From a virus: DNA of 64,000 bases. Positions 11,845 to 64,000 of this stretch are shown in pieces. Numbering within the stretch: position 1 is the first letter of the stretch; the number at the start of each line of letters is the position of its first letter. A model generated the notes under the pieces. It ran no database searches, had not been told where the DNA came from, and saw nothing but the letters and a program-made list of their open reading frames with translations. The stretch covers positions 32,001-96,000 of the IMG/VR virus record IMGVR_UViG_3300036790_000408; one strand, given 5' to 3'. A program made the position numbers and the translations under genes.

Positions 11845-11855
11845 AAGATGCGATC

Positions 11856-43997: not shown

Positions 43998-44288
43998 TTA
44001 GGAGAAGAGAAAAATCTCGATTGTCTCACCGGTAAGGTTGCCGGAAAGCGCAGCAACATTCAGCGTAAAACCGGTGTTGGTGGGGCTGCTGATGAAGGCG
44101 ACAGCGGCCTCCTTCATGCAGGGAATAGCGATATAGGGTGTTGGAACCGGCTCCGTCCAAGTGACTGCAACGGTCGCTGTGCTGGCACTTCCGGCATACG
44201 TCGCCGAGACTGAGCCGATGCAAATCCTATCCGCGAGGTTCGGCAGCAAGCCGTCCGGCGAATAGGCGGTATGAAAAGCTACGCCCAT
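43998..44288 (-). CDS. Small beta-rich structural protein (putative)
   Basis: Coupled to portal stop; 96 aa. Confidence 0.5.
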   Translation of the reverse strand: MGVAFHTAYSPDGLLPNLADRICIGSVSATYAGSASTATVAVTWTEPVPTPYIAIPCMKEAAVAFISSPTNTGFTLNVAALSGNLTGETIEIFLFS

Positions 44289-45745
44289 CAGGGATCTTCC
44301 TCGGGTTCGAATGATGCGGCCAGGCGCGGTGGCGCAGGCCGCGGATTGGCTCCTGCGGCAGGCTTCGCTGGACCCACGGTCGGCGGTTGCTGCGGTCTCG
44401 TCTTGTTGGAGGCGAGATCTGGATCGTCGATTACCGCTGTACCCTTGGCCGCCTGGATGGCGATGTCGGCGTCACTCTTGGTCATGTCACCCCAGGCATT
44501 CTCGGCCGGGGCTTCACCAAGCTTTCGGCGGATTTCGTTCGGGGTGAAAACGTTCGCGCCGTAGTACCGCGTCAGGATGGTGGAGGTCTTTTCCAGGTCT
44601 TCCCGCTCAACACCCTTCCACAAGAACCGAAGTTGAGAGAACCCAAGAGCACCCCAGACCACCTTGCGGGTGAGAGCGTTGGCCAGCACCGTTGCCATCG
44701 GCTTGATAGCGTGGATCCACTCTCGATCCTCACCAACTTCGGCCGTGCTCCGGTTGACGTCACGTTCCAGGTTCAGCGACATGTTCGAGATGTCGAACGC
44801 AGCCGCGACCTCGGTGCGAATGAATTCCTGGTATTGCAGATAGAGCGCTTTGTCGCCCTCAGGGTAGAGCTTCTGCACCGCCAACCCGCGAGTGCGCCCA
44901 GCCCCAGCCTGCCCGTCCACCAGTTCGGTGCCGATGATCGGGATCTTGCCCTGACCTTCGATCTCGTTGGTCCAGTACGTGCGCCACGTTTCGACCATGC
45001 GGGTCGAGACTTCGCCAAGGTCGATGGCGAACGGTGGCAGTGCGTTGCCGGCCAGCTTCGCGGCGAATGAGGCTGTGGCAAGCTGGTTCGAGATGCTCTG
45101 GAAGGCAACTTCGAGCGGGCCGTAGCCAAACGGCGAATGAGTCGATGGATTGGGTCGAATGTAAACGATCTCGTCGTCACGAAGCTTCACGCCGGGCTGC
45201 TGGCCTTGGGTGAAGTTGCCGCCATAGCCGAGCGTTTGTAGGTAGCGCGGCTCGTTCTTACCGCCCTTCCAGCCAGGGAAGATGTTGATCGACAAACCGT
45301 CCACCGGCCACAGGAACACCGGGCGATCCGGGAACTCTGACTTGCCAATCTCGATCACACCGGCGCCGAGACAGACATCGTTGATGACCTGGCTCAACAG
45401 GGTGTTGAAGCTGTCATCGTCGTTCGGCAAACTGAAACACAGCGTGGCGACTTCGATCTGTCGCCTGATCTCCGAGTTGGGCGATATGCCCTTGTTCGGA
45501 GCGATCTCCCACTCAAGCTGGGATAATGGGTTCTTAATCGTATTGATCGCGCGGCGGGCGATCGGCGTGTTGGAGAAATAGCGCAGGTTGCGCGGGGTTG
45601 GTTTGTAAACAACGCGACTGGATTGAGTGTACGCGTTCTGCCCAATCATGATCAGATTGGGGAAGGCGATCGACTCTCGTGTCGGCTCCTTGGTCGGTCG
45701 ACCCAAACGCCGGGGCCGCCAGGTGAAGATATCCTTGACTGCCAC
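44288..45745 (-). CDS. Portal protein
   Basis: LWPVDG, DDEIVYIRPNP...FGYGPLE, FTPNEIRRKLG..P..WGD; after TerL. Confidence 0.9.
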   Translation of the reverse strand: MAVKDIFTWRPRRLGRPTKEPTRESIAFPNLIMIGQNAYTQSSRVVYKPTPRNLRYFSNTPIARRAINTIKNPLSQLEWEIAPNKGISPNSEIRRQIEVATLCFSLPNDDDSFNTLLSQVINDVCLGAGVIEIGKSEFPDRPVFLWPVDGLSINIFPGWKGGKNEPRYLQTLGYGGNFTQGQQPGVKLRDDEIVYIRPNPSTHSPFGYGPLEVAFQSISNQLATASFAAKLAGNALPPFAIDLGEVSTRMVETWRTYWTNEIEGQGKIPIIGTELVDGQAGAGRTRGLAVQKLYPEGDKALYLQYQEFIRTEVAAAFDISNMSLNLERDVNRSTAEVGEDREWIHAIKPMATVLANALTRKVVWGALGFSQLRFLWKGVEREDLEKTSTILTRYYGANVFTPNEIRRKLGEAPAENAWGDMTKSDADIAIQAAKGTAVIDDPDLASNKTRPQQPPTVGPAKPAAGANPRPAPPRLAASFEPEEDP

Positions 45746-45767
45746 GAGCGCCCTCCGGACTAGGGCG

Positions 45768-46286
45768 CTATGGCTTTATCGCACACGCCCAGTCTTGCCT
45801 CATGACCAGCACGTCGAACCGCGCATGGATTGCCTTGCGCCCGCCGACTGTATCCATGTCGTCAAATGCCATAACCCCGCCTGACACCATGCGCGGCCAG
45901 AAATTATCAATCACCGCCAGCACGCTTTGGTACTGGTCGCAGTCACAATGCACGAAGGCGACTTCCTGCACATCATCAGTCAGGGTGCTGGGGAAGACGC
46001 CGGCGTGAAAGATAGCGTCTGGAATGTAGGCCTGAACGTGCACCAGAGAGGTGTTGGAGAAATCCCCGACCTTGTGTGTATCGAAGTCCTCAGCGTGCGG
46101 CATACCAGAGAACGTGTCGTAGAGGTGTAGATCCCGCTTTTGCGTCCTGGCAACTCTGGATAGATACCAAGCCGATCCGCCCTGGAAAACGCCAACCTCG
46201 ACGAAGGCGCCGGGAGGCGCGTCGAAAGCGATACTGGTCAGACAGGCTATCCTGGCTTTGTGGATGACCGAATGTGGAGGTGTCAC
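45768..46286 (-). CDS. TylF/MycF-like O-methyltransferase
   Basis: VEVGVFQGGS, LYDTFSGMP, G.FP.TL, AFVHCDCDQY.S, GG...FDD. Confidence 0.85.
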   Translation of the reverse strand: MTPPHSVIHKARIACLTSIAFDAPPGAFVEVGVFQGGSAWYLSRVARTQKRDLHLYDTFSGMPHAEDFDTHKVGDFSNTSLVHVQAYIPDAIFHAGVFPSTLTDDVQEVAFVHCDCDQYQSVLAVIDNFWPRMVSGGVMAFDDMDTVGGRKAIHARFDVLVMRQDWACAIKP

Positions 46287-47851
46287 AGGAGGCGCGTTAT
46301 GATCGGATCGGCGGGGCGCGCAAAGGCGAGAACCAAACTATCCCCACGGTCAGGGCTGCGGCCGATACGTTCGATCAAGTCCTCCTTGTCCTCTACCTGC
46401 AGACCATTCGTTTTGTAGGTGTACCGCGGCGCGGTGAGGTCGTTGAGCAACTGGCGGTCGGGCGGAATGGCGAGGTCATCACCAAGATTGGGATCAAGAG
46501 CTTCTCGCAGTTTCCACCACCACTCAGTCTTCTTGCGGGTGAACCCAAGCTGTCCGCTCGAGTCCCTGGCAAAACTACTTTGCCTGGCATCCATCGCGTA
46601 GGCTTTGAGGCCAGAGGCTTTGGCCAAGTCATAGACGCTGGCGCCAATATTGATGACATCGATGTTGATCGAGGGCCGCTCGCCGGACGGGATCGCACCA
46701 GCGATCAGCTCCAGCACCCTGAAACCATCCGGCGTTTCGGTGCCGGGAAAGGTCATCTGCTCGTCAAACCAAGGTCCGTAACGGGCCGTAATTACGGTAT
46801 AGTCCTTGCCGCCGCGCGCCACGTCAACGCCGAGCGAGTCCATCCTGATCCGGGGATCGAGGTCTTCCTTCGGCTTCCAGCGCGCCTGTGCCTGCAACAC
46901 CCACTCAGTCGGAATGATCTGCCGCGGATGATCTTCGTGACCGACCAGGAAGTCGCCATGAAGCATCTGGCTTCGCAGCGGCTCCGGCATCGCCTGGAGC
47001 ACCGACATGTACCCGCTCTGCATGTAGACCGGATTGTCGGTCAGGCGAGCGCGAATGAATGTTCGGCTAAGCGGTTGAACCGGGTAAGGCTCGCCAGGGA
47101 CATAGATCAGCCCAGGGCCATCGACCTCGGTATCGATCATCCTGCCGGTTTTCTTGTCCTTGATCTGCGCGAACCAACGAAGTTCACCGTCAGCAGCAGG
47201 ACGAGAATGTTTCGGATCCAGCCAAGGTGACCAGAACGCGGTCACCCAGTAGCCCTCTTGGTTTGTCGGCGGGTTGCCAGTGGCCACCACGCGAGACCGC
47301 TGACCCCTTACGTCAGAGCGGTTCCAGCCCATCAAGAACCGGAACTGGCTCTCGTGAAAATGGGTGATCTCGTCGAAGCCCTTCAGGTCATGTGGGCGAC
47401 CCTGGTAGGCTTGTTCATCGCCGAGGATCTGGCAGGCGCCAAACTCTACCCGGCGCCGCTTCTCGCCAACCTTGAGCCGCCAGATTTCCTTTTGGCCATT
47501 GAAGGTGCCGAACGGCAGATAGAGCGTTTCCGCGCGCTCCCGGAGACCCTGTAGCTGCTTGAACGATCGTCTAAAAATAATAGACGAAGAATGTTCCGTG
47601 CCACTGAGTCCAAGAAGGAGATCGCTCTTGCCTCCGCCGGCTGCGCCGCCGAAGAATAGGATATCAGCCTTGCTCTCCATTGCCCGCGTCTGAGGGCCCG
47701 GGAACGGGGTCCAGATCAACGGCTCCGCTGATTTCGAGCGGCGCTCCATTTCGACCGACACCTCGGCCAAGAGCGTTTCCCTCTGTGAGGGATCTAAAGA
47801 CCGCAGCGAGCGCAGTATCGTCGAGGTTTCTGATTGTGATTGGCTCACCAT
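46283..47851 (-). CDS. terL: Terminase large subunit
   Basis: FGGAAGGGKS Walker A, GFDEITHF Walker B, GVDVARGGKD and PDRGDS nuclease motifs; alternative start ATG 47749 with GAGGTG RBS. Confidence 0.95.
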   Translation of the reverse strand: MVSQSQSETSTILRSLRSLDPSQRETLLAEVSVEMERRSKSAEPLIWTPFPGPQTRAMESKADILFFGGAAGGGKSDLLLGLSGTEHSSSIIFRRSFKQLQGLRERAETLYLPFGTFNGQKEIWRLKVGEKRRRVEFGACQILGDEQAYQGRPHDLKGFDEITHFHESQFRFLMGWNRSDVRGQRSRVVATGNPPTNQEGYWVTAFWSPWLDPKHSRPAADGELRWFAQIKDKKTGRMIDTEVDGPGLIYVPGEPYPVQPLSRTFIRARLTDNPVYMQSGYMSVLQAMPEPLRSQMLHGDFLVGHEDHPRQIIPTEWVLQAQARWKPKEDLDPRIRMDSLGVDVARGGKDYTVITARYGPWFDEQMTFPGTETPDGFRVLELIAGAIPSGERPSINIDVINIGASVYDLAKASGLKAYAMDARQSSFARDSSGQLGFTRKKTEWWWKLREALDPNLGDDLAIPPDRQLLNDLTAPRYTYKTNGLQVEDKEDLIERIGRSPDRGDSLVLAFARPADPIITRLL

Positions 47852-48194
47852 TCTTACCCGTCAGTTCTTTGCGGGTAACTTCCTGCCAACCACCGAATTG
47901 CCGGAGCCATGCGAGCATCGCACGCATATCGCCGCCCATCGCGGCATTGACCAATCGAAGCGACACCGCGGCATAGACGTAGTCTTGGCCCATCGCTAGC
48001 TCGCTGCTGAACTGCTCCTGCAGCACGTCCTCGGTAATTCCCAGCATGTGAGCCATGGCCGGGATGGTCGCCTTGGTCGACGACATCATCCGAACTTGCA
48101 TAGCCCGCTTGCGGGCGAGTTCGGCGTCCTCTGGCGGCGGCCGGATCTTCTTTGGCCTGCCTCTGGGTCGACCGGTTACTTCACTGCGCGCCAT
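47664..48194 (-). CDS. terS: Terminase small subunit
   Basis: GRPRGRP N-terminus, HTH-like core, ELTGKNGEPI C-terminal motif; upstream of TerL. Confidence 0.75.
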   Translation of the reverse strand: MARSEVTGRPRGRPKKIRPPPEDAELARKRAMQVRMMSSTKATIPAMAHMLGITEDVLQEQFSSELAMGQDYVYAAVSLRLVNAAMGGDMRAMLAWLRQFGGWQEVTRKELTGKNGEPITIRNLDDTALAAVFRSLTEGNALGRGVGRNGAPLEISGAVDLDPVPGPSDAGNGEQG

Positions 48195-48823
48195 TGGCGA
48201 TATTCAGCCGCAGCCTCGACGCATTGACGAAAAATAGTGGACTCGGCGGTCGGCGCGGGACGCAGCCAGACCGGCTTATTCAAACCACCGAACATCGCCT
48301 TAGCCCTGCGAATGTCAGCGCTGTCCCGAATGGAAACCAGGATCTCGTCGGCCCGCTTGATCGTGTCGGGATGGATGCCAGCCCAGTCGCTCATGGTGTT
48401 GGCGCGCAGGGTGGTCCAGGATCCCTCGACGTCGGTTCTCACATGGCCAGTGGTGTCGATCTGCACTCGACAGCCGCCGGTGATCAGATCGCGCACCAGC
48501 ATGGTGAGGTCGTGACTGGCGGGCTCCGGACCGTGGATCACGATATGATAGCGGTGGTGAGTAAGAGCGAGTTTGGCCAACGTGCTTGGCCCAACATATG
48601 AAAACTCAGGGCCGTGGAATTTCTTTCCCAGCATCTTGTTGAGGCTGATTTCGTTCGACGGATCGTACTCCCAATCCGCGATCGGCTGGAGGGGTCCGTC
48701 TTTCCCGGTCGGTACATCGATCTCAGGGTTTTGCATCAGCCGGATCATTAGCGCCGGCACACCAGCCCATTGACCATCTGGCTGGATATTGAAGGTGACT
48801 GAGTTGACCGGCAGGGAACTCAT
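48176..48823 (-). CDS. QueE-like (radical-SAM fold) protein lacking CxxxCxxC
   Basis: Start moved to ATG 48823; colinear with QueE motifs (IQ.DG..AGVPALMIRL, HIVI.G.EP..HDL, QIDTTG, RADEI) but no Cys triad. Confidence 0.75.
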   Translation of the reverse strand: MSSLPVNSVTFNIQPDGQWAGVPALMIRLMQNPEIDVPTGKDGPLQPIADWEYDPSNEISLNKMLGKKFHGPEFSYVGPSTLAKLALTHHRYHIVIHGPEPASHDLTMLVRDLITGGCRVQIDTTGHVRTDVEGSWTTLRANTMSDWAGIHPDTIKRADEILVSIRDSADIRRAKAMFGGLNKPVWLRPAPTAESTIFRQCVEAAAEYRQWRAVK

Positions 48824-50118
48824 GCCGCGACGTCGCTGGTGGGTCGATCGAGCAGGAGCTCCTGGTAGGTCTTGCCGGTCTCCTCGTTGACCGCCTGTTC
48901 GCCGGTGAAATCCTGCCAACGCTGGATGCTGACGTCGATCATCGCCGGGGAGATATCGATCCCGACACAGGTTCGTTGGGTCAGTTCGCAGGCCATCAAG
49001 GTCGTGCCACTGCCGATGAAGGGATCGTAGACAACTTGCCCCTCGCTGGTGTTGTTCTCGATCGGCCGCAGCATGCATTCGACTGGCTTCTGGGTGGCTG
49101 AGCCGGTCTCATTCGACGCCTGCTTTTCGATAGTCCAGAGCGTCGTCTGCTTGGTGCCGCCGTTCCAATTGGCCGTCTTGTTTTTCCGCACCGCATAAAA
49201 ACAAGGCTCATGCTGCATGTGATACTGGCGCCCTGGGCTGACGACGAATTTTGTCTTTGCCCAAATGATCTGCTGGCGAACTTCAAACCCAGCATCCTGC
49301 AACGCGAGTTGCGCCGTCATCGGGTCTCTCGCGGCGTGCCAAAGGTAAGTGATGTCGCCGGTGAATAGCTTGATGGCCGGTTGCCAGTTGGCGATCTCTT
49401 CATCCGCGGCCGGAACACCCTCAATCGCCCTATTCTTGCCGGTGGAGAGGCGCTTGCCATTGGCTCGTTTGGCCCTAGCACGCTTGGTCGGGTCGTATTC
49501 AATGAACGGTGGGGCAGTGACCATAAGGGTCGGCGATATGCCGTTCATCGCGATGTTGGCGGTATCGAACTGGGTGCTGTCGCCGCACACCAGGCGATGC
49601 TTGTTCAGGATCCACACGTCACCGAGTTTGGAGACGGGATCGACTGGGGCTGTTGGGGTGTCGTCCGGATCGGCTTCGTCGTTCTCGGTCGAGCCGTCGG
49701 CTACGTCGGTGTAGAATTCGATCTCTTCCGGGTCGAAACCAGTAAATTCTAAGTCGTAATTCATCCCGTCGAGGTCAAGCAGCTCTAGAGTGACCAGACC
49801 TTTATCCCACTCTGCCCATGTTGCTGACCGATTAGCTAGTAATCGAAACGCTTTTACTTGAGCTTCCGACAATCCGTCAGCCAAGGCTACCGGCAATACT
49901 GTCAGACCAAGCTTTTTGGCCGCGTGCAGTCGGAGGTGGCCGTCGATCACCAGTCCAGTTGAGAGCGCCACGAGCGGAATTCTGAAACCGAACTCCTGGA
50001 TGGCCGCCACCATCTTGTCAAGTTTATCGGCGTTCTTCCTGGGATTTCTACCGTACTCGATGAAGCGATCGATCGGCCAGTGCTCAACCTTGAGCTGAAC
50101 CGATCCCTCAGATGCCAT
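48820..50118 (-). CDS. ParB-N-terminal + DNA amino-methyltransferase-like fusion
   Basis: YGRNPRK...IQEFGFRIP...IDGHLRL.AA; QKPVECM.R.I.N, VYDPFIGSGTT; motif IV reads TAPPF. Confidence 0.85.
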   Translation of the reverse strand: MASEGSVQLKVEHWPIDRFIEYGRNPRKNADKLDKMVAAIQEFGFRIPLVALSTGLVIDGHLRLHAAKKLGLTVLPVALADGLSEAQVKAFRLLANRSATWAEWDKGLVTLELLDLDGMNYDLEFTGFDPEEIEFYTDVADGSTENDEADPDDTPTAPVDPVSKLGDVWILNKHRLVCGDSTQFDTANIAMNGISPTLMVTAPPFIEYDPTKRARAKRANGKRLSTGKNRAIEGVPAADEEIANWQPAIKLFTGDITYLWHAARDPMTAQLALQDAGFEVRQQIIWAKTKFVVSPGRQYHMQHEPCFYAVRKNKTANWNGGTKQTTLWTIEKQASNETGSATQKPVECMLRPIENNTSEGQVVYDPFIGSGTTLMACELTQRTCVGIDISPAMIDVSIQRWQDFTGEQAVNEETGKTYQELLLDRPTSDVAA

Positions 50119-50325
50119 ACATGGGATGTCCGGAATGGAGGCGTGAAGCGTCTCAGCCCCACCTCTGGGGAACATAGTTCTTTTTATGATGCTGGGGTGA
50201 AAGCGTCGTCAAGCATTTGTTCGTGCGGGAAAGTTCACATCGGCCCAAGCGCCACGACAAATATGTCACATAGACGCCCAAACATGCATGGATAATTATT
50301 GGGCATATCAATGTGTTGGAAGCTT

Positions 50326-50357
50326 TCCGCGCACCAGCTTTTCACTTCGTGCGCGGA
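50326..50357. promoter_or_regulatory. 9-bp inverted repeat upstream of the phage late operon
   Basis: TCCGCGCAC-14 nt-GTGCGCGGA within an AT-rich intergenic region. Confidence 0.35.
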
Positions 50358-50421
50358 TCATGGTGTGGGTGAAATATTTTATTTTGGGCAACCCAGGGAA
50401 AGCGAATCGGGTACGCGCATA

Positions 50422-50958
50422 TCAGGCCGCTTTTCGACGTTGGATAGTGCGCACGGAAACTCCATGCGCCGCGGCGATCTCCTTGTCACTCCAACCTTCC
50501 ACCAGATCGACCACCAACGCCTTGCGCCCCGTGTATTTCCCGGCCCGCCGAGCTACGGCGATCCCCTCCTTCTGGCGCTCCAGCATGATCTCCCGCTCCC
50601 AGGTGGCCACGCCGGCCAGGATGGTAAGCATCAGCTTCGAGGTCGGGTTGCGGGTATCGAGGCGCTCGCCGCCCATGGACAGGATCAACAGCCCGACGCC
50701 GCGCTTGGACAGGTCAGCCTCGATGGTCAGGAGTTCGGCCGTCGACCTAGCCAACCGATCAGGCTTGGTGACGGCCAGGGTATCACCGGCCTCCAGTGAG
50801 GCTAGGGCGGCGATGAGTTTGTCGCGCTCCACCATGGAAGAGACCTGCTCTGAAAATATTAGATGGCAGCCTAGCGCCTTAAGGTCTCGCTCCTGGGCTT
50901 CAAGTCCAGCGACCTGCTCGACGGTAGAGGTGCGTGCGTAGCCTACGATCTTGGTCAT
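50422..50958 (-). CDS. Small serine recombinase (resolvase/invertase) with C-terminal HTH
   Basis: VGYARTST..Q, GDTL.VTKPDRLARS, ERQKEGI..AR..G.Y.GRK. Confidence 0.95.
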   Translation of the reverse strand: MTKIVGYARTSTVEQVAGLEAQERDLKALGCHLIFSEQVSSMVERDKLIAALASLEAGDTLAVTKPDRLARSTAELLTIEADLSKRGVGLLILSMGGERLDTRNPTSKLMLTILAGVATWEREIMLERQKEGIAVARRAGKYTGRKALVVDLVEGWSDKEIAAAHGVSVRTIQRRKAA

Positions 50959-51019
50959 ATCAACCATCCCCATTATGGTGGGGAGTTTTTACCACCCATA
51001 AAAGGCTCGTTCAAGAAAA

Positions 51020-51223
51020 TTATGACGGACGTCGGCGTCTCCGATTCTCTTTCGAGTCTCCCTCTCGAAGCAAGGTACGCAGCCCTGACCTGACCACCCA
51101 TTCCAATGCTGAGGTCTGCGTCTTCATCCGCTTGAGATGCTGAATATCGATGATGGCATCCCATAACTCCTCGGGTAGCGAGACGGACTTCCTGGTCAAC
51201 CTAGAGCCCTCGCCATCACCCAT
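51020..51223 (-). CDS. Ribbon-helix-helix (CopG-like) regulator
   Basis: RKSVSLPEELWDAI...SALEWVVR; ATG 51223 preceded by AAGGA; divergent from virB1. Confidence 0.6.
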   Translation of the reverse strand: MGDGEGSRLTRKSVSLPEELWDAIIDIQHLKRMKTQTSALEWVVRSGLRTLLREGDSKENRRRRRPS

Positions 51224-51266
51224 GTTTATTTTTCCTTGACGCTGACGCCCGGCGAGTTCTAGGAAT

Positions 51267-51300
51267 TGGTGCATCTGGTTCATATGGTGCATCTGGTTCA
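51267..51300. repeat. Two 16-bp direct repeats (18-bp period)
   Basis: TGGTGCATCTGGTTCA at 51267-51282 and 51285-51300. Confidence 0.8.
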
Positions 51301-51340
51301 CTCAGCAACAGCATAGGCATACCCTCTAATGTTTCGCAAT

Positions 51341-52126: not shown

Positions 52127-52440
52127 CTTGGATTTGGCTACAACGACTGCCACGGCCGGCCGTGGCTTGGGCTATGCTCTTCGTCACTCTGCTGCTTTAC
52201 GGGACCACGCCAGCACTCGCACAATTTGTGGGCGCCGGCGTCACTGGGACCGGCGGCGGCCTGATCGCCCAGCTCATCTCATACATCAACACCAATTTTG
52301 CCAGTGGCTTGATTGAGGCGAGTGTGATGTTGGCGGGCGGTATGATGATGTTCCAGCGGCACACCATGGCCGGCTTGGCCACGATGGCTTGTGGAGCATT
52401 GGTGGTCACCAACTCCGCGGCTATTGGAGCATTGATCTAA
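52123..52440 (+). CDS. virB2: T4SS major pilin
   Basis: Signal peptide ending ALA-Q, two hydrophobic helices; position. Confidence 0.8.
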   Translation: MTWIWLQRLPRPAVAWAMLFVTLLLYGTTPALAQFVGAGVTGTGGGLIAQLISYINTNFASGLIEASVMLAGGMMMFQRHTMAGLATMACGALVVTNSAAIGALI

Positions 52441-55267: not shown

Positions 55268-56694
55268 AACGCCTATTGCTAGCCGGCGCCGCGGTGCTGT
55301 CGGCATGGGCCGTGCCGGCTCGCGCTCAAATCCCCGGACTGGGGAGCATACCAGGCCTTGGGGGGCTGGGTGGCGGCGCCGGTGGGATTACATGTTCCAA
55401 CTGTTACACCCAGACCAGCGGCACCACCAATGCCGCGACCGAAATTCTGAAAATGATCGCGCAAATCGAGCAGCTCATTCAGATCTTTACCATGCTGTCA
55501 GGCAATACAAGCGTCAACAGTATGGCAACGATCTTGAACAGCACTGCTGTTTTCAATCAGATGGGCAGCTTTGGGAATGTCCCGCTGATGATCCAGGGCG
55601 GCGCTGTAGGGTCGATGGGCGCGAGCTATCTGGCTGCCAATACAATCTTTATGCCGGGCGCCAGCAATATGCCGTACATGAACACGGTCGCTCTGATCGA
55701 GCAGCGCCAAGCGGCCTCCCTGGCTAATGTCCAAGGTATGGCGACATCGATGCTGGTGACCAGCAACACCATCCTGACCGGCTTGATGCAGCTTCAGGTT
55801 CTCATCGACGCTCAACCAAGCAACCAATTGATGGGTGGCATCAATTCCAGGATGTCAGCCTACAACGGCAACATCCAAACACAGCAGTACCAACTCGTGC
55901 AGATGCAGGCCATGGTCAACGCACAGAACCAGGTTTTCGAGCAGCAGCGGCGGCAAGCTGGGTTTTGTTCCTCGGTCAGTTGGTACAATGACCGGCAGTA
56001 CTACTATGGAGCCGGACCCACCGTATCAGGCTCCGGAACCGGTTGCGCCGGGGCCGGTGGCGGCCTGGTGGCGGGTAGCGCTGATTTACCCACGTCGGGC
56101 GCTGGCGGCGGCATCGTTTTGGCCAGCGCTGGGACTGGCGGTATTGGTAGCCTGGGATCACTCGGCACGGTCGGGCTTGCGGGGGGCGCTGGAGCTCTGT
56201 CTCTGGGGTCCACCGGCGCCACAAGCTACGTGCAGGGCGGAACGCCGCTGGCTGGATATGTGACCAACACCCAAGGGCCTCTGGCTGGATACATCTCCCA
56301 GCCCGATACGAGCGGCGCTGCCGGAACAACTGCCAATGCATCCTCAACGCTCCCAACTCCTCCAACTCCCCCGACCGGCACGGTCGATGCCACCGTATCT
56401 GATGGCGGCTGCGTCGAGACGTCAGACGGCAGTGACTGCGGCGGTTTGACCATGGATGACACCGCCAACTTCGACCCGACGGCGCCGGTCTCAGCCCTCC
56501 CGCCAACCGGGCCCAGCGTCGGCGACGCCGTCACTATCCTGCCTGGAGGTGATCCAACCGCCGGGATTTCGACCGACATCACGGTTTTCAATGACCTGCC
56601 GATACCAAAGCCAGCAGATATGGCTGGAATGGCCGTGGTGGCGCTCCTGAAGCCGCGACGAAGAAAGGATGAGCAGTTGAGGATGGCGGCATGA
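55264..56694 (+). CDS. virB5: Extended minor pilin
   Basis: Signal peptide ARA-Q; helical core (QIEQL.QI...QLQ.LID.QP...IN.R); long Gly/Thr/Pro-rich extension. Confidence 0.75.
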   Translation: MKRLLLAGAAVLSAWAVPARAQIPGLGSIPGLGGLGGGAGGITCSNCYTQTSGTTNAATEILKMIAQIEQLIQIFTMLSGNTSVNSMATILNSTAVFNQMGSFGNVPLMIQGGAVGSMGASYLAANTIFMPGASNMPYMNTVALIEQRQAASLANVQGMATSMLVTSNTILTGLMQLQVLIDAQPSNQLMGGINSRMSAYNGNIQTQQYQLVQMQAMVNAQNQVFEQQRRQAGFCSSVSWYNDRQYYYGAGPTVSGSGTGCAGAGGGLVAGSADLPTSGAGGGIVLASAGTGGIGSLGSLGTVGLAGGAGALSLGSTGATSYVQGGTPLAGYVTNTQGPLAGYISQPDTSGAAGTTANASSTLPTPPTPPTGTVDATVSDGGCVETSDGSDCGGLTMDDTANFDPTAPVSALPPTGPSVGDAVTILPGGDPTAGISTDITVFNDLPIPKPADMAGMAVVALLKPRRRKDEQLRMAA

Positions 56695-57029
56695 AAATCC
56701 TTGTGGCCGCAATGGGGTTGCTGGCCACAACCGCGACTTCTGCTGTGGCTGATCCGCCATGGCAAGTTCACCGCGAGCCCGGTCTGATCTGCATGACTAT
56801 GCCCAACAGAGGCGTCGCCATCCATTCCGTGCCGGCCCAGACATCAGACGTCATTGGCTATGCCGACTCGACTGTCTTCATGCCACTGCCGCGGCGCGCT
56901 GGAAACGGCTTCGTCATGATCGAGCGGCCAGATAGGGAACCCGGATGGGTGCCGGAGAAGGGCATGCAGCCCAAGCCCAATTGCACCCCGATGCTCATGT
57001 CGAACGGCGCCATCAACGAAGGGAACTGA
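56691..57029 (+). CDS. Secreted SH3-like protein at the position usually occupied by entry-exclusion genes
   Basis: Signal peptide; VIGYA...GFVMIE....GWV pattern; two Cys. Confidence 0.5.
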   Translation: MKILVAAMGLLATTATSAVADPPWQVHREPGLICMTMPNRGVAIHSVPAQTSDVIGYADSTVFMPLPRRAGNGFVMIERPDREPGWVPEKGMQPKPNCTPMLMSNGAINEGN

Positions 57030-57031
57030 CC

Positions 57032-57901
57032 GTGGGTGGCTTCACCTTCTATGAGCAACTCTACAGCGATTACAATTCGGTGCTCACATCCGCGTCGATG
57101 GCCGCTGCCAATCAGTTGATCGGCGGCATAGCGCCTTATCTCCTAGCCGCCTTGGTGCTCGTGGTCATCATCATCGGCGTCATCATGATGCTCGGGAGAT
57201 TGGACCAATCGACCGGCGTGCTGTGGATCGTTCGCACGGTTGCGGTGGCCAATCTTCTGACGTCGGCGATGTACACCCAGTGGGTGATGACCACATTCCT
57301 TACAACAATTCCGGGAGCCATATCGTCGCTGATCGGCGTCACCGGCGTAACCACCCCAGCGGCGACGTTCGATCATCTGCAGGCTGGCGTCGAGAAGATG
57401 ACTGCAACCCTCGACGCCGCGGCTGAATGGTGGGATGTCGGCTCTCAGTTCCGGATCACGGTAGCTTACTACTTCGCCACCGTACCGCTATTTCTCGGCT
57501 TCTGGCTAAGCATTATCACTATGGCATTCGTTTCTGTTGTTGCTCCGCTAGGAGCGGTTCTGCTATTATTCTACCTGTTCAACAACACCAGACACTACGC
57601 CGAAAGGTGGATCGGGAAACTGGTATCGTTGATGATTTTGCAACTGATAATAGCCATCCTGATGAACATCATCCTGACAGAGTTCGGAGTCTTTGCCGCA
57701 CGCATGAACGCCGCCGGCAATCTTGGCGACTTGGCTGAGCGTATCTCTGTCCTATGGGATATGGGCCTCGGCTTCTTCGTTGGGGTTGGCTTCCTCATTG
57801 GTGCACCGATCATTGCCGGCTACATCGGCGGCGGGCAAGTGACTGCCATGGTTGGCATTCCCGCCAGGATGGCCACTCTCGCTCTGGCGAGGCTGAAATG
57901 A
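57032..57901 (+). CDS. virB6: T4SS polytopic membrane protein
   Basis: Multiple TM segments; LLFYLFNNTRHYAERWIG.LV, P.IAG.IGGG; GTG start 57032. Confidence 0.9.
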   Translation: MGGFTFYEQLYSDYNSVLTSASMAAANQLIGGIAPYLLAALVLVVIIIGVIMMLGRLDQSTGVLWIVRTVAVANLLTSAMYTQWVMTTFLTTIPGAISSLIGVTGVTTPAATFDHLQAGVEKMTATLDAAAEWWDVGSQFRITVAYYFATVPLFLGFWLSIITMAFVSVVAPLGAVLLLFYLFNNTRHYAERWIGKLVSLMILQLIIAILMNIILTEFGVFAARMNAAGNLGDLAERISVLWDMGLGFFVGVGFLIGAPIIAGYIGGGQVTAMVGIPARMATLALARLK

Positions 57902-58122: not shown

Positions 58123-58136
58123 AGGAAAGAAACTAC

Positions 58137-58310
58137 ATGTCAACTACAGCAAAAATTTCTATCGCTATGGTCCTCCTGGTGCTCGCCGGATGCAGCGGCG
58201 AGACGCCACCACCATCATGCAAGGGGCCGTGGACCAGCTTTCCGCAGCCAATGCCAAGTATCGACGGGGCGCCGCCAGCGCCCGAACGACAAACCATGGT
58301 ACAACACTGA
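58137..58310 (+). CDS. virB7: T4SS core lipoprotein
   Basis: Lipobox LAGC, PPPSCKGPW; ATG 58137. Confidence 0.75.
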   Translation: MSTTAKISIAMVLLVLAGCSGETPPPSCKGPWTSFPQPMPSIDGAPPAPERQTMVQH

Positions 58311-59047
58311 TGTGGAACCCGTTCAAACGCACCATCGTGCTCCCGCAGGCGCAAGCGATCACCAGGACACCGCTGACCCGGCAGGAGCAGCAAGTGCGCA
58401 CTATGGTCGCGCGGGAAATGAAAAGAAATCTCCGCACGCGACAGGGATTACTGCTGGTCTGCGTCGTCTCCATGGCCACGAACACCGCGCTGGCTATCGC
58501 CCTGGCCGGCACGGTGCCGCTGATCCGCATCGTGCCCATGCTGCTGCAAACCAGGAAGGATGGATCGACCCGCGTTGAGCCCGTGATGTCGATGATGTCG
58601 GTCGAGGACGCGCAGGATCCGGTCAAGCGCGCAACCATGTGGCAGTACGTGGAATGGCGGGAAGGGTTCACCCGCGACACGGCCAAGTTCCGCTTCGACT
58701 TCGTCGTGGCGCTCAGCGCCGGCGATGTCGGTGAGGCTTACTCAAAATGGTATGCCTATACCAACCCAGAAAGCCCGCAGGCAAAGTACTCCAAAAACAA
58801 CGGCACAGTCACCATCACATACGACACGTCTGATTATTCGTCTGATCCGAACATCTTCGTGGTGAACTTCTATCGTGAAGTGCATGTGCCGGGACAATTG
58901 CCCTCCAGGTCTCACTGGTCTGCCTCCATCCACTACAAGCTGATGCAAGCCATCCCAGCGATCGAACGCGGCACCATCAACCCAAGCGCTCTCAAGGTCA
59001 CCGACTACGTGCTGACCGAGACGGATGATCCAGGAACCAAGTCATGA
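58310..59047 (+). CDS. virB8: T4SS protein
   Basis: Single TM then IVPMLLQ.R.DG, YV.WREGF, Y..TNPESPQ, NPSALKVTDY; TGATG overlap. Confidence 0.9.
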   Translation: MWNPFKRTIVLPQAQAITRTPLTRQEQQVRTMVAREMKRNLRTRQGLLLVCVVSMATNTALAIALAGTVPLIRIVPMLLQTRKDGSTRVEPVMSMMSVEDAQDPVKRATMWQYVEWREGFTRDTAKFRFDFVVALSAGDVGEAYSKWYAYTNPESPQAKYSKNNGTVTITYDTSDYSSDPNIFVVNFYREVHVPGQLPSRSHWSASIHYKLMQAIPAIERGTINPSALKVTDYVLTETDDPGTKS

Positions 59048-59946
59048 GGAAGCTTCTGCTTGCCGGCGCAGCGCTCGCCGCCCTGTCATCATCTGCCTTA
59101 GCGGCCACGGAATGCAAGCCGACCAAGGAAGACAGCCGGGTATGCACCGTGCCCTACAACCCCAATCAGGTCGTCTCGATCTGGGGCACGGTGCGTTCCG
59201 TCGTGGTCGTCGAATTCGGCAAGACCGAACAGATAACCCACGTCTCGGCGGGGGATATCGATGCCCTGAAGCCAGAAAACATGGGTAGCAATGTTTTGTC
59301 TCTCAGGCCAGTGCCGACAATCACGGTGGCTCAGCAAATACAGCCAGTCGCCGTAACAACGTCGCTGCCGGACGGCAGTAATCGCCTCTACATGATCGAG
59401 TTCAATGAACGTCCAGGCGGCTCCATCCTGCCTGGCACCAATGGCGCTCAATTTCTGGTCCGCTTCACCTACCCAGGCGACGTTGCGGCCGCGGCGGCAG
59501 AAGCGTGGCGGGTGAAGGAGCGTGCCAAGATCGAGCATGAGATGGAGGCCAAGCTCGGCACCATCGGGCGCGGCAGCATATCCGGCCAGAACGGATACGC
59601 CTGCGACTATATCTACCAGACCGATCCCAAGCATCACCCAGTCTTCGTGCCAACTCGGGTGTGCGATGACGGGCAAAAAACCTACATCCTGTTCCCCGGC
59701 AACACGCCGCTTCCGGCTATCAGCGTCGATGGACCGGACGGTCAACCGATGATCACCGATGGATCGTTTGACAGCATCGGCTCGTACTACGTCATCAACC
59801 GGGTGGTGCGGCATATCTATCTGCGCTCAGGCGACCTCGTGGTGTGCGTCTGGAAACAGAGCGAGCCCAACCCTGCGGGCTTCAATCCAGGGACGAATAC
59901 CTCAGTGCGCGGCGTCGAACGCACGATCAAGGGATCGGATCAATGA
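59044..59946 (+). CDS. virB9: T4SS outer-membrane core protein
   Basis: DSRV.TVPYNPNQV, P.RVCDDGQKTYI.FP...PLPAI. Confidence 0.9.
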   Translation: MRKLLLAGAALAALSSSALAATECKPTKEDSRVCTVPYNPNQVVSIWGTVRSVVVVEFGKTEQITHVSAGDIDALKPENMGSNVLSLRPVPTITVAQQIQPVAVTTSLPDGSNRLYMIEFNERPGGSILPGTNGAQFLVRFTYPGDVAAAAAEAWRVKERAKIEHEMEAKLGTIGRGSISGQNGYACDYIYQTDPKHHPVFVPTRVCDDGQKTYILFPGNTPLPAISVDGPDGQPMITDGSFDSIGSYYVINRVVRHIYLRSGDLVVCVWKQSEPNPAGFNPGTNTSVRGVERTIKGSDQ

Positions 59947-60986
59947 GCGGGATGCAGGATGATGGTATCGGCGCAGCAAAATCTCCGCCGGGGCCATGGA
60001 AGTACATCTTCATCGCCTTTCTGTGCTTCTGCGCCGTGGCATTTATCTTCTGGCTATTCAAATCCAGCGGTTACCTGCATCAGCACGCCGAGAAGCCAAT
60101 TCAGTCGACCGACGTCGCTCACGCTGATGCTTACCAGGGCCCTCCAGACCTTAAGGAAAATGCTGCATTCAGGGCCAGCGTGCCGCCAACGCCAAGGCCG
60201 CAGCCGCCACCACCGATCGACGAGTCCTCAGTGTGGGCTGGCAAGACCGTGTGGAGCCCGCAGGGGCTACAGCAATCACTTCAGCCGCCGGGTGCCACAC
60301 CACAGGAGAACCCTCAGGCACAAGGCGGCGGCGCCGGTCAGGGCGATAGCCTGCTGCACGGCACCACCGTCGCCTACAAGATCCCGCACCCGATGTTCAC
60401 CGTCCCCGAGGGGAAGGTCATATCGTGCAAGCAGATCACCAAGCTGAGCACCGCCTCGGGTGGCAATGTTCTGGTCACCGCCATTGTCGACGAGGATGTC
60501 TGGGGAATTGGCAATCAGGTTATCCTGATGAACAAGGGCACCGAGGTCATCGGCGAGGTTGCTCATGGGATGATCAATGGGCTGGATCGCCTGCAGGTGG
60601 TCTGGCGGCGCGGACGCACGCCGCCGCCCTACAACATCCGCTTCACGCTCGACGCGCCGGCCGCCGGGCCACTTGGCGAGGGCGGGCTGGACGGCGATAT
60701 CAACCGCCACGAATGGCAGAAAATTAAGGGTGTGTTGCTGTTTACCCTGCTCGACTGGGGCGGCGCCATCGCTCAGTCGGCCTTGGCCGCGCGCGGCACA
60801 ACCAGCATCAACCTAGGGAGCACCAATACCCAATCCACCGCGGAAGCTGCAGGGACGATCCTGCTACAATCGATGATCAATATTCCCGACACGATCACTC
60901 GCAACCAAGGAAAATCCTGCTCGATCTTCATGGCAGGCGATGTGGATTTCTCCAACGTCTATGGATTGAAGGAAGTAAGAAAATGA
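59943..60986 (+). CDS. virB10: T4SS core protein
   Basis: TM + Pro-rich linker; VPEG.VISC, G.ELGG.DG.INRH, NIPDTI.RNQG. Confidence 0.9.
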   Translation: MSGMQDDGIGAAKSPPGPWKYIFIAFLCFCAVAFIFWLFKSSGYLHQHAEKPIQSTDVAHADAYQGPPDLKENAAFRASVPPTPRPQPPPPIDESSVWAGKTVWSPQGLQQSLQPPGATPQENPQAQGGGAGQGDSLLHGTTVAYKIPHPMFTVPEGKVISCKQITKLSTASGGNVLVTAIVDEDVWGIGNQVILMNKGTEVIGEVAHGMINGLDRLQVVWRRGRTPPPYNIRFTLDAPAAGPLGEGGLDGDINRHEWQKIKGVLLFTLLDWGGAIAQSALAARGTTSINLGSTNTQSTAEAAGTILLQSMINIPDTITRNQGKSCSIFMAGDVDFSNVYGLKEVRK

Positions 60987-61225
60987 GCATGTCAGACAAC
61001 TATAAGCAGAACCCGACCATCAGTGCCCGTTGGTCCGACCTTAGGCATGGGCGCATCCACCTCTCGAAGTGGGAGTTGGTGATCGCCTTCGTGCTCACCC
61101 TGCTCCTATTCGTGAACCTGTTCTTTAATCAGGGGATCGGATCCCTGATCTTCTTCATCATCATGGGAACCGCCACAATGATGGCGTGGAAAACCCGACG
61201 TGATGCCCGCAAGGGCACGCAGTGA
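60983..61225 (+). CDS. Small two-TM membrane protein
   Basis: Overlaps virB10 and virB11 by ATGA/GTGA. Confidence 0.6.
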   Translation: MSMSDNYKQNPTISARWSDLRHGRIHLSKWELVIAFVLTLLLFVNLFFNQGIGSLIFFIIMGTATMMAWKTRRDARKGTQ

Positions 61226-62271
61226 CCACGGCCACACTACAGCTCCAGCATATGTTGGAGCCCTTCTTTCCGTTGCTTGCCGACGGCACAGAAGACATCG
61301 CGATCAACCGCCCAAGAGAGGCCTGGGTGCGTCGCTACGGCGTCTGGACACCGTTCGACGTACCGGACATGGACTATGACACTCTGCTGGACATGACGAT
61401 CATGGCGGCGTCGATTTCTCAGCAGGAAACCAACGCACGCAACCCGCTCTTGTTCACGGACATCCCGATGGACAAGGGACCAGCATTGCGGCTGATGGCC
61501 ATTCAACCGCCGGCGGTCGAGGGCGGCCTTATGTCCTGGACCCTCCGCCAACCTAGCGGCAAAGTCCACCCGATCGAGACGATGACCAAGCGCTACAAGA
61601 CAGACCGCTGGAACAAGTGGGAGCGCAGGAAGGAGAACAAGAACCACGACGCAGCCTTGGCGCTCTACGACGCTGGGGAGTTGACAGCATTTTTGACCCA
61701 CCTGGTGCAGCAGCGGTACAACATCATCTGCTGCGGCGCGACCGGCGCCGGCAAGACCGAGGCCGGGAACACGATCCTCTCGGCCATCCCTGATAGCGAC
61801 CGAATCATCACCATCGAGAACACCAGGGAGTACCGGCTGAAACAGCCAAACTGCCTGCATCTGCTCTACTCGCAGGGCGGTATGGGCGTCGCCGATGTCT
61901 CCCAGGCCGACCTGCAGCGCGCCAGCCTACGGTGCCGGCCAACCCGCGTGCTGGTACAGGAGATTTTGGACGCCGACGCAGCGGCCACCTACATCATGGA
62001 AGTGGTCTCGGGTCACCCTGGCTCGATCACCACCATCCACGGCGAGAACCCGTCCCAGGCGTTCAAGCGTCTCTTCGGCATGGTCATGGCATCGGCCGGT
62101 GGGGCCGCGCAGCAGGTCGAGAATGTCCTCTCGATGCTGGAGAGTACGGTGGACTGCATCATCCCATTCCGCAACGACGCCTCGGTGTTCTCGGTCGGTG
62201 AGGTATTCTTCGCTCCGGCCGCACGCCGCCGCGGAGAAATGCTCCGCTCCCTGCTGACGGACGTCGATTGA
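61222..62271 (+). CDS. virB11: T4SS traffic ATPase
   Basis: CGATGAGKT, RIITIENTRE, LRCRPTR..VQEI, SGHPGSITTIHG. Confidence 0.95.
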   Translation: MTTATLQLQHMLEPFFPLLADGTEDIAINRPREAWVRRYGVWTPFDVPDMDYDTLLDMTIMAASISQQETNARNPLLFTDIPMDKGPALRLMAIQPPAVEGGLMSWTLRQPSGKVHPIETMTKRYKTDRWNKWERRKENKNHDAALALYDAGELTAFLTHLVQQRYNIICCGATGAGKTEAGNTILSAIPDSDRIITIENTREYRLKQPNCLHLLYSQGGMGVADVSQADLQRASLRCRPTRVLVQEILDADAAATYIMEVVSGHPGSITTIHGENPSQAFKRLFGMVMASAGGAAQQVENVLSMLESTVDCIIPFRNDASVFSVGEVFFAPAARRRGEMLRSLLTDVD

Positions 62272-62669
62272 TCCGCCGGTTGCCGTGGACGCTGCGGGCC
62301 ACCCTGGTCTTCGCAGCGTGCATCCTGACCTTCGTCCTATGGACTGGGGCAGCGTCAGTTCTCTTCATCAACCTCATGAAATTCGGGAGATACTATCCGT
62401 ATGACTATCCGCCGACTTATTGGCAGTGGTGGGCCTACTTACTCGACCCAGAGTGGCCTCCCAGCATCAACAAGTGGCTCGCCCTCTCCGGACTCGTGCC
62501 GCTATTCCCTCCGGGTGCCTTCCTTGCGCGCCGGCTACTTGATCGCCGGTCCGTATCGTATTCTGCCACAGGCCCCCGACCACTCTACGGCGAAAGTCAT
62601 CCAGCCACTCGATCCGAAATGCAGAGCGGCGGCATCATCTGGAAAAAGAAACTACCGGGGCAACGATAA
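62268..62669 (+). CDS. Membrane-anchor (N-terminal) part of coupling protein as separate ORF
   Basis: Two TM segments then LYGESHPATRSEM, matching the L(H/Y)G.A..A...E motif that precedes the T4CP ATPase domain. Confidence 0.65.
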   Translation: MIRRLPWTLRATLVFAACILTFVLWTGAASVLFINLMKFGRYYPYDYPPTYWQWWAYLLDPEWPPSINKWLALSGLVPLFPPGAFLARRLLDRRSVSYSATGPRPLYGESHPATRSEMQSGGIIWKKKLPGQR

Positions 62670-64000
62670 TGTGGGCTGGCGATGTCATCATCGGGCGCGA
62701 CGAAAACAGCGAATACGGCACCCTGCCTGGGCACGAGCACGTCGCCCTCTACGCCAAGACCCGGAGCGGGAAGACCACCAGCAGCGTCATCCCGAACGCT
62801 TTCAATTTCCCCGGCTCCATGGTCGTGCTCGATGTGCGGCGCGAAATTTTCGCGGCCACAGCCGGCCATAGAGCCTTCAACATGGGGCAGGAGGTCTACC
62901 TTCTTGATCCGGCATCACCGAACGGTCGGTCTCACCGGTGGAACCCGCTCGACATTGTCGACCGTACGTCGGTGGAGAGGTTTGACCAGATATCCCGTAT
63001 CGCCCTGATGATGTTCCCAGATCACACCGGCTCCAGCGGCACCACGAACACCGATAAGTTCTGGGATCCGGCCGGGCGCTCCGCGTACACGGCGGTTGCC
63101 GCACTGATCGCCGAGACACCCGAGTGGCAACTGAACCACGCTATGATCCTTCGGATGTTCTCCGGCGCCGGGTTGGATATGGTCATCGAGGCGGTCAATG
63201 CCCGCCGGGCCCAGAGCGCCAAACCACCCTACAGCCAGAATGTGATCGACGGTCTGTCCGGGTACATGTCAGGCGACACTCAGCTTGTGGACGGCATCCG
63301 AAAGACTGTGGAGGTCAAGCTTCAGGCATGGTTCAACCACAAGATTGCTGCGGCGACATCAGGCAGCGACTTCGACCTGCGCGACCTGCGCCGACGCCCC
63401 ATGACCGTCTATGTCGGCATCTCCCCCGGCAATATGGCGCGCTGGAGGAGCTACCTCGCCCTCTTTTTCGAACAACTCGTCAACCTGAATACCGACGTCA
63501 CTCCGCAGGAAGATCCGACTCTCCAAATCCCCCTACTGGTGATGATGGATGAGTTCGCCCGGCTAGGCCGGATGCAGACCATCGCCGAGGCCGCCCAGTA
63601 CGCCGCCGGTTATGGGGTTCGGTTCTTCTACGTGATCCAGAACAAGCGACAGTTGGAAGCGATCTATGGCGACGCCGCCAGCGCTGACATCTTCGACAAC
63701 ACCGGGGCTGAGATCGTTTTCGGCACCAATGACCTGAAAACCACTGAGGAAGTCAGCCGGCGCTTTGGTGACGACACGGTCAATATCCGCACCCAAAACA
63801 GACCTAGGTATTTCTCCTGGGCCAACTGGAAAAAGCAAACCGAGGCTGAGCACCCCCACCGCCGCCCCTATCTGCTACCACAGGAGGTCGCCCGACTGCC
63901 GCGGAACAAGCAAATCGTCCTGCGCGCCGGCATGCAGGGGTCCATCACCGACCGCATTCCATGGTTCGAGGATCCGGCCATGCGCCGCCTCAAGCTTGAT
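62669..64000 (+). CDS. virD4: Type IV coupling protein ATPase domain, partial (runs off right edge)
   Basis: Read manually: EHVALYAKTRSGKT, IPN...PGSMVVLD, RWNPLD, SDFDLRDLRR, MMDEFARLG, VIQNKRQLEAIYG. Confidence 0.9.
   Translation, partial: MWAGDVIIGRDENSEYGTLPGHEHVALYAKTRSGKTTSSVIPNAFNFPGSMVVLDVRREIFAATAGHRAFNMGQEVYLLDPASPNGRSHRWNPLDIVDRTSVERFDQISRIALMMFPDHTGSSGTTNTDKFWDPAGRSAYTAVAALIAETPEWQLNHAMILRMFSGAGLDMVIEAVNARRAQSAKPPYSQNVIDGLSGYMSGDTQLVDGIRKTVEVKLQAWFNHKIAAATSGSDFDLRDLRRRPMTVYVGISPGNMARWRSYLALFFEQLVNLNTDVTPQEDPTLQIPLLVMMDEFARLGRMQTIAEAAQYAAGYGVRFFYVIQNKRQLEAIYGDAASADIFDNTGAEIVFGTNDLKTTEEVSRRFGDDTVNIRTQNRPRYFSWANWKKQTEAEHPHRRPYLLPQEVARLPRNKQIVLRAGMQGSITDRIPWFEDPAMRRLKLD

Follow-up and report, generated by a model that had tools for sequence, protein, structure and literature searches.

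Introduction

Gene transfer is taken to have two separate engines, phages and conjugative elements, which differ in their costs, host ranges and cargo limits. According to a 2025 review, a phage that combines spread by virions with conjugation had not been found to date, and the searched passages of a 2021 phage-plasmid census, in which phages were screened with CONJscan, mention no conjugative case (PMC7969092). The term "conjugative phage-plasmid" has been applied to the Escherichia coli cointegrate p1002-1 (bioRxiv 10.1101/2025.03.14.643293) and, in passing, in a single-cell preprint on mobile genetic elements. Here we describe a 64,000-nucleotide stretch of DNA, hereafter the window, which comprises bases 32001–96000 of the single 134,436-base IMG/VR record IMGVR_UViG_3300036790_000408 (coordinates marked "contig" refer to the whole record). 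We read it as the middle of a complete 134,309-bp large tailed phage with an integral conjugation system of the MOBF relaxase and type T mating-pair formation (MPF-T) classes, belonging to a lineage of conjugative tailed phages, and we put the probability of this reading at roughly 0.6. The parts are of known kinds; for their combination as a conserved lineage, our literature searches on conjugative phages found no published description.

Several described systems resemble this element in part. Like phage-plasmids of the P1, N15, SSU5 and VP882 types (PMC12282955, PMC7969092), it has a circular-mapping tailed-phage genome, no integrase, plasmid-derived genes and a site-specific recombinase; unlike them, it carries a full MPF-T type IV secretion system (T4SS), a type IV coupling protein, a MobF relaxase and a candidate origin of transfer (oriT), and is without recognisable Rep and Par genes, by which phage-plasmids are defined. 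With the IncW plasmid R388 (MOBF/MPF-T) and plasmid pACMV2 of Acidiphilium multivorum it has in common a TrwC-type relaxase-helicase with an HxH motif, a VirB-type channel, a VirD4/TrwB coupling protein, the identical 8-mer TATTGTCT by an inverted repeat, and a divergent P-loop operon on what would be the leading side. Here, however, a 134-kb phage genome surrounds the module, the relaxase bears an insert of about 150 aa, an RlaP nucleotidyltransferase lies in its operon, VirD4 is split, and no named plasmid VirB4 exceeds 41% identity to that of the element. The E. coli element p1002-1 likewise joins a phage-plasmid and conjugation genes on one replicon, but it is a cointegrate, whereas the linkage described here is conserved down to 66% identity of the terminase protein TerL, with no second replicon and no seams. 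Streptococcus tandems of a phage and an integrative conjugative element (ICE) (PMC13651849) and prophage-carrying conjugative megaplasmids (PMC12934698) resemble it in that phage DNA is able to travel via a conjugation channel; as described in these two reports, they consist of two integration-joined elements, each with an integrase or attachment (att) sites, whereas here there is no integrase, there are no att-like repeats, and the conjugation module occupies a fixed locus of the backbone.

If the reading is true, such elements would form a new class of mobile element, the "conjugative phages". A phage able to mate would escape its receptor-limited host range, spread without killing the donor, blur the classification of viruses and plasmids in metagenomics (the present record is filed as a virus), and give a natural system in which to test how lytic transmission trades off against conjugative transmission. 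The swapping of T4SSs at one locus would, in addition, offer a view of whole-machine exchange between phages and plasmids.

A circular genome with two divergent modules

The record ends in the same 127 bases with which it begins, giving a circle of 134,309 bp; in IMG/VR it is classed as a virus bearing direct terminal repeats, with a CheckV completeness of 100%. A soil-metagenome run of 2020, which is probably the source sample, was assembled independently in Logan and yields one contig of 134,339 bases at a depth of 16.2, whose break point lies inside virB4, whose own ends overlap by 30 bases, and which shows zero differences from the record across 44288–64000. Subtracting the overlaps (134,436 − 127 and 134,339 − 30) leaves 134,309 in either case, so that one and the same circle was closed by two assemblers that use different k and break it in different places. 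This answers the question of circularity raised in the initial annotation and rules out, in this sample, the chimeric junction that it had named as a possible flaw. The circular map is compatible either with a replicon that is itself circular or with circular permutation, as in a circularly permuted virulent phage. Runs X2, X6 and X7 held small shares only, in short contigs of 90–95% identity, and were not used for habitat or junction.

Within the circle, the head and packaging genes lie on the minus strand:

39764..40837, minus strand, major capsid protein of HK97/SU10 type, 357 aa (ESM Atlas score 0.98; template modelling score 0.86–0.88 to SU10/HK97 capsid clusters)
40881..42419, minus strand, DUF6582 head-module protein, 512 aa (PF20223, E 1e-13), syntenic in all relatives
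44288..45745, minus strand, portal protein (PF04860, E 1e-34; 94% identity and a nonsynonymous-to-synonymous rate ratio, dN/dS, of 0.03 in the relative L010)
45768..46286, minus strand, TylF-like methyltransferase (PF05711, E 2e-15)
46283..47851, minus strand, TerL (phrog_979, E 2e-41; weak by Pfam alone)
47664..48194, minus strand, TerS-like protein (phrog_309, E 6e-5), syntenic in relatives
48176..49078, minus strand, QueE-like protein (phrog_2076, E 1e-7)
48820..50175, minus strand, N6/N4 DNA methylase, heading the packaging-side operon (PF01555, E 4e-21)

Divergent from them, the conjugation channel and coupling protein are encoded on the plus strand:

51497..52797, plus strand, VirB1 (SLT domain), VirB2 pilin and VirB3, with starts at 51497, 52123 and 52441 (PF01464, PF04956, weak, and PF05101)
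52703..55267, plus strand, VirB4 ATPase (PF03135, E 3e-21; NF010427, E 6e-186; Walker A GHTGLGKS)
55264..57901, plus strand, VirB5 (476 aa, start 55264), a 112-aa open reading frame (ORF) and VirB6 (start 56945) (PF07996 and PF04610; TIGR02791 and NF010426)
58137..58310, plus strand, VirB7-like lipoprotein with signal peptide and LAGC lipobox, from an internal Met of the frame 57936–58310
58190..62271, plus strand, VirB8 (start 58190), VirB9 (59044), VirB10 (59844), an 80-aa membrane ORF and VirB11 (61222) (PF04335, PF03524, PF03743 and PF00437; NCBIfam VirB8–B11)
62268..62669, plus strand, membrane protein, 133 aa, hydrophobic segment at residues 5–37
62669..64000, plus strand, continuing to 64105 (105 nt beyond the window), VirD4 coupling protein, 478 aa (PF02534, E 2e-84; PF12696 and PF10412; Walker A AKTRSGKT)

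The initial annotation had described intact-looking phage genes diverging from an intact virB1–11 plus virD4 set, and ORF and profile searches bear this out. The MPF-T set VirB2–B11 is complete (Pfam and NCBIfam matches for each protein, the lipobox for VirB7), all frames of the conjugation module are open, and Walker A motifs are intact in VirB4, VirB11 (GATGAGKT) and VirD4. Because the VirB matches fall below strict equivalog cut-offs, these proteins are diverged members of their families; VirB4 has its place in a clade whose 17 clusters show 55–79% identity, and from there identity drops to at most 41% for named plasmid VirB4s. VirD4 models align with the 478-aa protein only from model position 133–143 onward, and the preceding 133-aa membrane protein is, by its sequence, the probable detached N-terminal transmembrane part. 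The split is kept as 141 + 478 aa in a 123-kb relative (L019:12916–14777) and is therefore not a sequencing frameshift. In VirB5 (55264–56694; 503 aa in the same relative) the VirB5 domain is confined to residues 53–231 and is followed by a C-terminal extension of about 250 aa without a family match, which may be an adhesin or recipient-recognition part.

On the virion side, the Caudoviricetes hallmarks TerL, portal and HK97-fold capsid are all present. Capsid and tail genes, which the initial annotation had counted within 44288–64000, do exist, but they lie to the left of that interval, the capsid gene at 39764–40837 and the tail genes at or below 36223. The capsid protein is 75–88% identical among relatives; it has no Pfam or PHROG match, and an AlphaFold2 model built from 3 sequences was unusable (mean predicted local distance difference test score, pLDDT, 31). 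The methylase has an orthologue of 434 aa in L010, which makes 50124 its likely start. A total of 7982 TerL homologues were found, and in some relatives these contain intein or homing-endonuclease domains (P0007, P0020 and P0032).

Phage-like sequence makes up over 100 kb of the 134 kb, and the replication genes are of phage type: a DnaB helicase, a DUF1376 primosomal protein and ERF, the DnaB-type replicative helicase (contig 10592–13048, L001) being interrupted by a LAGLIDADG intein. The similar G+C content noted earlier for the two modules was upheld, with values of 0.55–0.61 throughout; tetranucleotide usage of the conjugation region correlates at 0.97 with that of the virion and replication modules, which equals the closeness among phage modules themselves, and no compositional break was found. 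There are no flanking repeats of at least 16 bp around this module, and a search for att sites, which the initial annotation thought might separate the two modules, gave only 15-bp chance matches.

Relaxase and candidate origin of transfer

The window ends inside virD4. In the flanks, where the initial annotation had proposed looking for relaxase, rep/par, integrase and lysis genes, the conjugation module continues 2 kb beyond the window end with a MobF relaxase-helicase beside an R388-like nic sequence:

contig 98042–101449, minus strand, TrwC-type MobF relaxase fused to an SF1B helicase, 1135 aa (PF08751, E 3e-33)
contig 101453–102226 (L003:5453–6226), minus strand, RlaP-family nucleotidyltransferase (PF10127, E 2e-61), directly upstream of the relaxase gene within its operon
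contig 106769–106927, Lar-like anti-restriction ORF

The relaxase scores 133 bits with the NCBIfam MobF model, for which the cut-off is 100 bits. Residues invariant in an alignment of 18 homologues include Y37, Y38 and H352-T-H354, and a variable insert of about 150 aa follows the catalytic tyrosines. A profile of this alignment matches the structure of TrwC from R388, whose DPQLHTH motif lines up with DPDLHTH; a single-sequence phmmer search against the PDB gave no match, so that a profile search was needed. The relaxase is preceded by the RlaP nucleotidyltransferase, an unusual relaxosome neighbour, and by small ORFs, an order that is kept in the 123-kb relative (RlaP at L019:6240–7004).

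Between the relaxase operon and a divergent operon encoding proteins of 123, 281 and 138 aa lies a 580-bp spacer, in which a 12-nt palindrome, GCATCGCGATGC, is followed by ATATTGTCT. The 8-mer TATTGTCT is identical to the one 5' of the R388 nic site and occurs once in the 134 kb, both strands considered; in R388 this 8-mer is sufficient for cleavage by TrwC in vitro (PMC4814116). The site falls within a 44-nt block of which 42 positions are identical in L019, while the surrounding spacer has diverged, and this oriT-like sequence in cis is, from its sequence, a credible candidate.

The 281-aa protein of the divergent operon carries a P-loop, and its homologues (30–39% identity) occur only on alphaproteobacterial plasmids, mostly of Acetobacteraceae (Roseomonas, Acidiphilium and Acetobacter). 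The conjugative plasmid pACMV2 (MOBF/MPF-T) has a P-loop homologue in the same divergent position beside mobF. The arrangement of relaxase, oriT candidate and P-loop operon presumably corresponds to the stbABC-oriT-trwABC layout of R388, and the operon, taken to be of plasmid origin, would by this analogy be stbABC-like. Strand polarity of the nic motif, if the comparison holds, would put the P-loop operon and the Lar-like anti-restriction ORF on the leading side, with the relaxase operon entering last. A soil alphaproteobacterium from the Acetobacteraceae/Rhodospirillales is the probable host. In pACMV2 itself, the spacer between mobF and the P-loop operon (L118:6100–6150) contains GGTGCAATGGTCT, which resembles the nic regions of R388 and of the phage and may mark a possible oriT of that plasmid.

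Conservation of the junction and probable exchange of the secretion cassette

The initial annotation had suggested searching for the same junction in other genomes. It recurs in four other independently assembled data sets (L010, L008, L016 and L017), with TerL identities of 66–91%, and in three relatives the relaxase sits on the same contig. The relatives are as follows:

L010/L019 (JGI 3300079560), 123,001 bp, TerL 91%, same layout including the resolvase; VirB4 79% and relaxase 79% on the same contig
Logan contig of 57,170 bp, TerL 94% and relaxase 93%, the two proteins being paired by their equal contig size of 57,170 bp only
L016 (Logan SRR29078258), 65,173 bp, TerL 77%, portal-TerL-methylase and a divergent block SLT-VirB2...B11-VirD4...TrwC
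L017 (JGI 3300064043), 35,940 bp, TerL 76%, same junction, VirB4 37%, a cellulase-domain gene inside the virB operon
L008 (ENA ERZ25039592), 135,873 bp, TerL 66%, virB divergent from TerL, VirB4 27% and VirB9 29%

Across these relatives the backbone proteins (portal, TerL and capsid) are 65–94% identical, as against 21–79% for the T4SS proteins. The contrast is sharpest for the cassettes found at one locus in L017 (13175–15547), L008 (1–8440) and L016 (8784–20470), whose VirB4 proteins are 37%, 27% and 61% identical to ours, as opposed to 66–77% for TerL. A conserved phage backbone combined with a much more diverged T4SS points to cassette replacement at a fixed locus; the most economical reading of these sequences suggests that T4SS cassettes replaced one another at one position of a vertically inherited phage backbone. 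Given that the T4SS appears to have been exchanged for other types in sister phages, we argue that the mating channel itself is selected in the lineage. The cellulase-domain protein of the L017 cassette has 790 aa and lies between VirB5 and VirB6.

Between the window and L010, synonymous divergence (dS) is 0.9–2.2 in both modules, so that synonymous sites are saturated. The dN/dS values of head and packaging genes are 0.03–0.14, that of the resolvase is 0.19 and those of VirB1–B5 are 0.09–0.24, with no stop codons, and the strongest purifying selection falls on the head genes (0.03–0.08). Low dN/dS and the lack of stops imply that purifying selection has kept both modules through an equal span of divergence.

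Farther out, a TerL profile search returned 80 GTDB loci with TerL at 43–56% identity, many of them on chromosome-scale contigs, for example in Nitrospirillum, and VirB or VirD4 lay within 10 kb in none of the 80. A single-sequence TerL search of genome contigs gave no match, a profile of the VirB4 clade searched against viral and metagenome contigs gave no further usable contexts, and a near-identity DNA search of the junction against plasmids and phages gave a 90-bp VirD4 match only, or nothing.

The region between the modules

Two features occupy the 1.3 kb between the methylase and virB1:

50422..50973, minus strand, small serine recombinase of resolvase/invertase type, 183 aa (PF00239, Resolvase, E 3e-34, plus a helix-turn-helix domain)
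51020..51301, minus strand, small ORF with 9-bp iterons (51267–51300, repeat family D1) in the virB-proximal control region

The recombinase was missed in the initial annotation, which was right that no insertion sequence (IS) or integrase separates the modules: the gene is neither an IS nor a tyrosine or large-serine integrase. It is 66% identical in L010 and absent from L008, L016 and L017, which keep the terminase/virB junction. The iterons, TGGTGCATC/TGGTTCATA, lie just upstream of the small ORF beside virB1 and are perfectly conserved in L010, where the spacer has otherwise diverged. Before the packaging-side operon, an 85-nt block (50150–50234) that combines a GC hairpin and a promoter-like pair, TTGACG...CATAAA, is likewise conserved in L010, and alignment of the whole spacer with that relative reveals conserved blocks before virB1 as well. 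Judged by this conservation, the 1.3 kb is not a neutral spacer, and the iterons and promoter-like block may form a control region shared by both modules.

A Hin-like invertible switch was also considered. A 19-nt imperfect inverted repeat (50398–50416 and 51035–51053) exactly brackets the resolvase gene; L010 retains one of its arms but not the second, and by our own estimate about 0.3 such repeats are expected by chance. The switch was rejected, and the repeat is probably fortuitous.

Mode of life and alternative explanations

From gene content, we infer both conjugative transfer and virion production. The phage genome would persist in cells without integrating, there being no integrase; the relaxase would nick the phage's own oriT, VirD4 would pass the relaxase-bound single strand to the VirB channel, and the whole phage genome would thus reach a neighbouring cell independently of the phage receptor. 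Alternatively, the same genome would be packaged by its terminase into capsids and exit by lysis. That this dual route holds across a conserved lineage, with one genome both packaged in virions and self-transmissible by its own MOBF/VirB system and with the channel cassette repeatedly re-acquired, is a proposition on which we consider the odds evenly balanced. Persistence as a maintained circle is favoured by the resolvase, the plasmid-type P-loop operon and the missing integrase (no tyrosine integrase, PF00589, was found anywhere in the element, as the flank examination had been meant to establish).

A number of observations weigh against this reading, and against a strict phage-plasmid label in particular. 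A search for the CbiA/ParA family was negative and plasmid Rep families are absent among the 43 flank ORFs, so that the flanks supplied no rep/par genes. A clear CI-type repressor was not found either, the single HTH_3 match being below cut-off. Without Rep, ParA and a clear repressor, a plasmid-like lysogenic state is hypothetical. Lysis genes were not recovered: neither Phage_lysozyme nor Amidase_2 gave a match, no recognisable endolysin family turned up in the 134 kb, and the only lytic transglycosylase (SLT) domain there is that of VirB1 (contig 83572–83835). The many homing endonucleases, the intein and the DNA-modification and anti-restriction genes make the element look like a virulent phage, and mating, being slow, is not easily accommodated in such a life cycle. 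The hairpin of the oriT candidate folds no better than shuffled sequences (z 0.39), and two relatives, L009 and L011 (126–137 kb, TerL 58–64%), lack virB in the 10 kb upstream of TerL. The proposal of a candidate conjugative phage-plasmid in the initial annotation is thus supported in its conjugation gene set and its circle, and lacks Rep and ParA in its plasmid half, for which the P-loop operon is the only candidate.

Among the other explanations, the one to which we give most weight, while still considering it unlikely, is a real phage with a functional T4SS that does not move the phage genome itself and serves instead for export of protein or other DNA, for pili and contacts (adhesion, biofilm or recipient access), or for mobilisation of a co-resident plasmid. 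The long extension of VirB5, the cellulase-domain protein in the virB operon of a sister phage, which hints at a surface or adhesion role, and the swapping of T4SS cassettes like accessory cargo would suit such a role; yet the element has in cis a cognate relaxase-helicase of the MobF type, together with a coupling protein and a nic sequence like that of R388, all conserved along with the T4SS, which constitutes a signature of self-transfer, and no effector-like genes were recognised. Ranked next, and also unlikely, is a conjugative plasmid with a domesticated phage module, whether a particle resembling a gene transfer agent or a tailocin or a defective prophage, that makes no infectious virions. 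Here the plasmid-type DNA transfer and replication module and P-loop operon, and the fact that neither endolysin, holin nor repressor was recognised, have to be set against the share of the genome that is phage-like, with TerS/TerL, portal, capsid, tail and a phage replication module. Moreover, it is the phage part that forms the conserved backbone across relatives and the T4SS that varies, the head genes are those most strongly constrained, and the relatives of 126–137 kb exist with no virB near TerL.

More doubtful again is a strictly virulent phage that uses its T4SS during infection, for example to pass genomes to neighbours before lysis or to exclude competitors. Building a T4SS and passing 134 kb through it would be slow by the measure of a lytic cycle, the presence of a serine resolvase and of a plasmid-type P-loop operon agrees with a circular replicon that is maintained, and the more distant TerL relatives are prophages in chromosome-scale contigs, which together count for more with us than the homing endonucleases, DnaB intein and DNA-modification genes, or the failure to find an integrase, ParA or a clear repressor. 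An artefact or nesting, be it a chimeric assembly, a prophage in a conjugative plasmid or an ICE in a phage with att sites, is by far the least probable and largely refuted. The sequence does come from a metagenome assembly, and a recombinase gene does lie between the modules; but two assemblers gave the same circle without a difference across the junction, the four other data sets reproduce that junction at 66–91% TerL identity, the recombinase is a 183-aa resolvase type that three junction-keeping relatives do without, and there is no tyrosine integrase, no flanking repeat of 16 bp or more and no change of composition.

Other features of the element

The tail genes lie to the left of the capsid gene in the window:

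30082..32463, minus strand, tape-measure-like tail protein, 793 aa, situated in the tail operon (PF10145, PhageMin_Tail, weak, E 1e-4, below cut-off)
34268..36223, minus strand, tail-sheath-like protein, 651 aa (PF22671, Gp18_domIII_N, weak, E 1e-5)
311–34253, minus strand, downstream tail genes, including a Baseplate_J protein (E 2e-22)

Beside the Baseplate_J protein and the weak sheath match, no tube protein of a contractile tail was identified, and profile searches gave only weak matches for a head-tail adaptor. The tail region also holds fibres with FN3 domains and several homing endonucleases. Within its tail-fibre part, an open frame of 2769 aa (13836–22145) adjoins FN3-rich proteins and HNH-AP2 and GIY-YIG endonuclease inserts. 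A single tRNA gene, tRNA-Ser(UGA), was called on the minus strand at contig 31329–31427 (L002:11329–11427), and since it overlaps the 5' end of a 904-aa frame, the start of that frame is probably over-extended.

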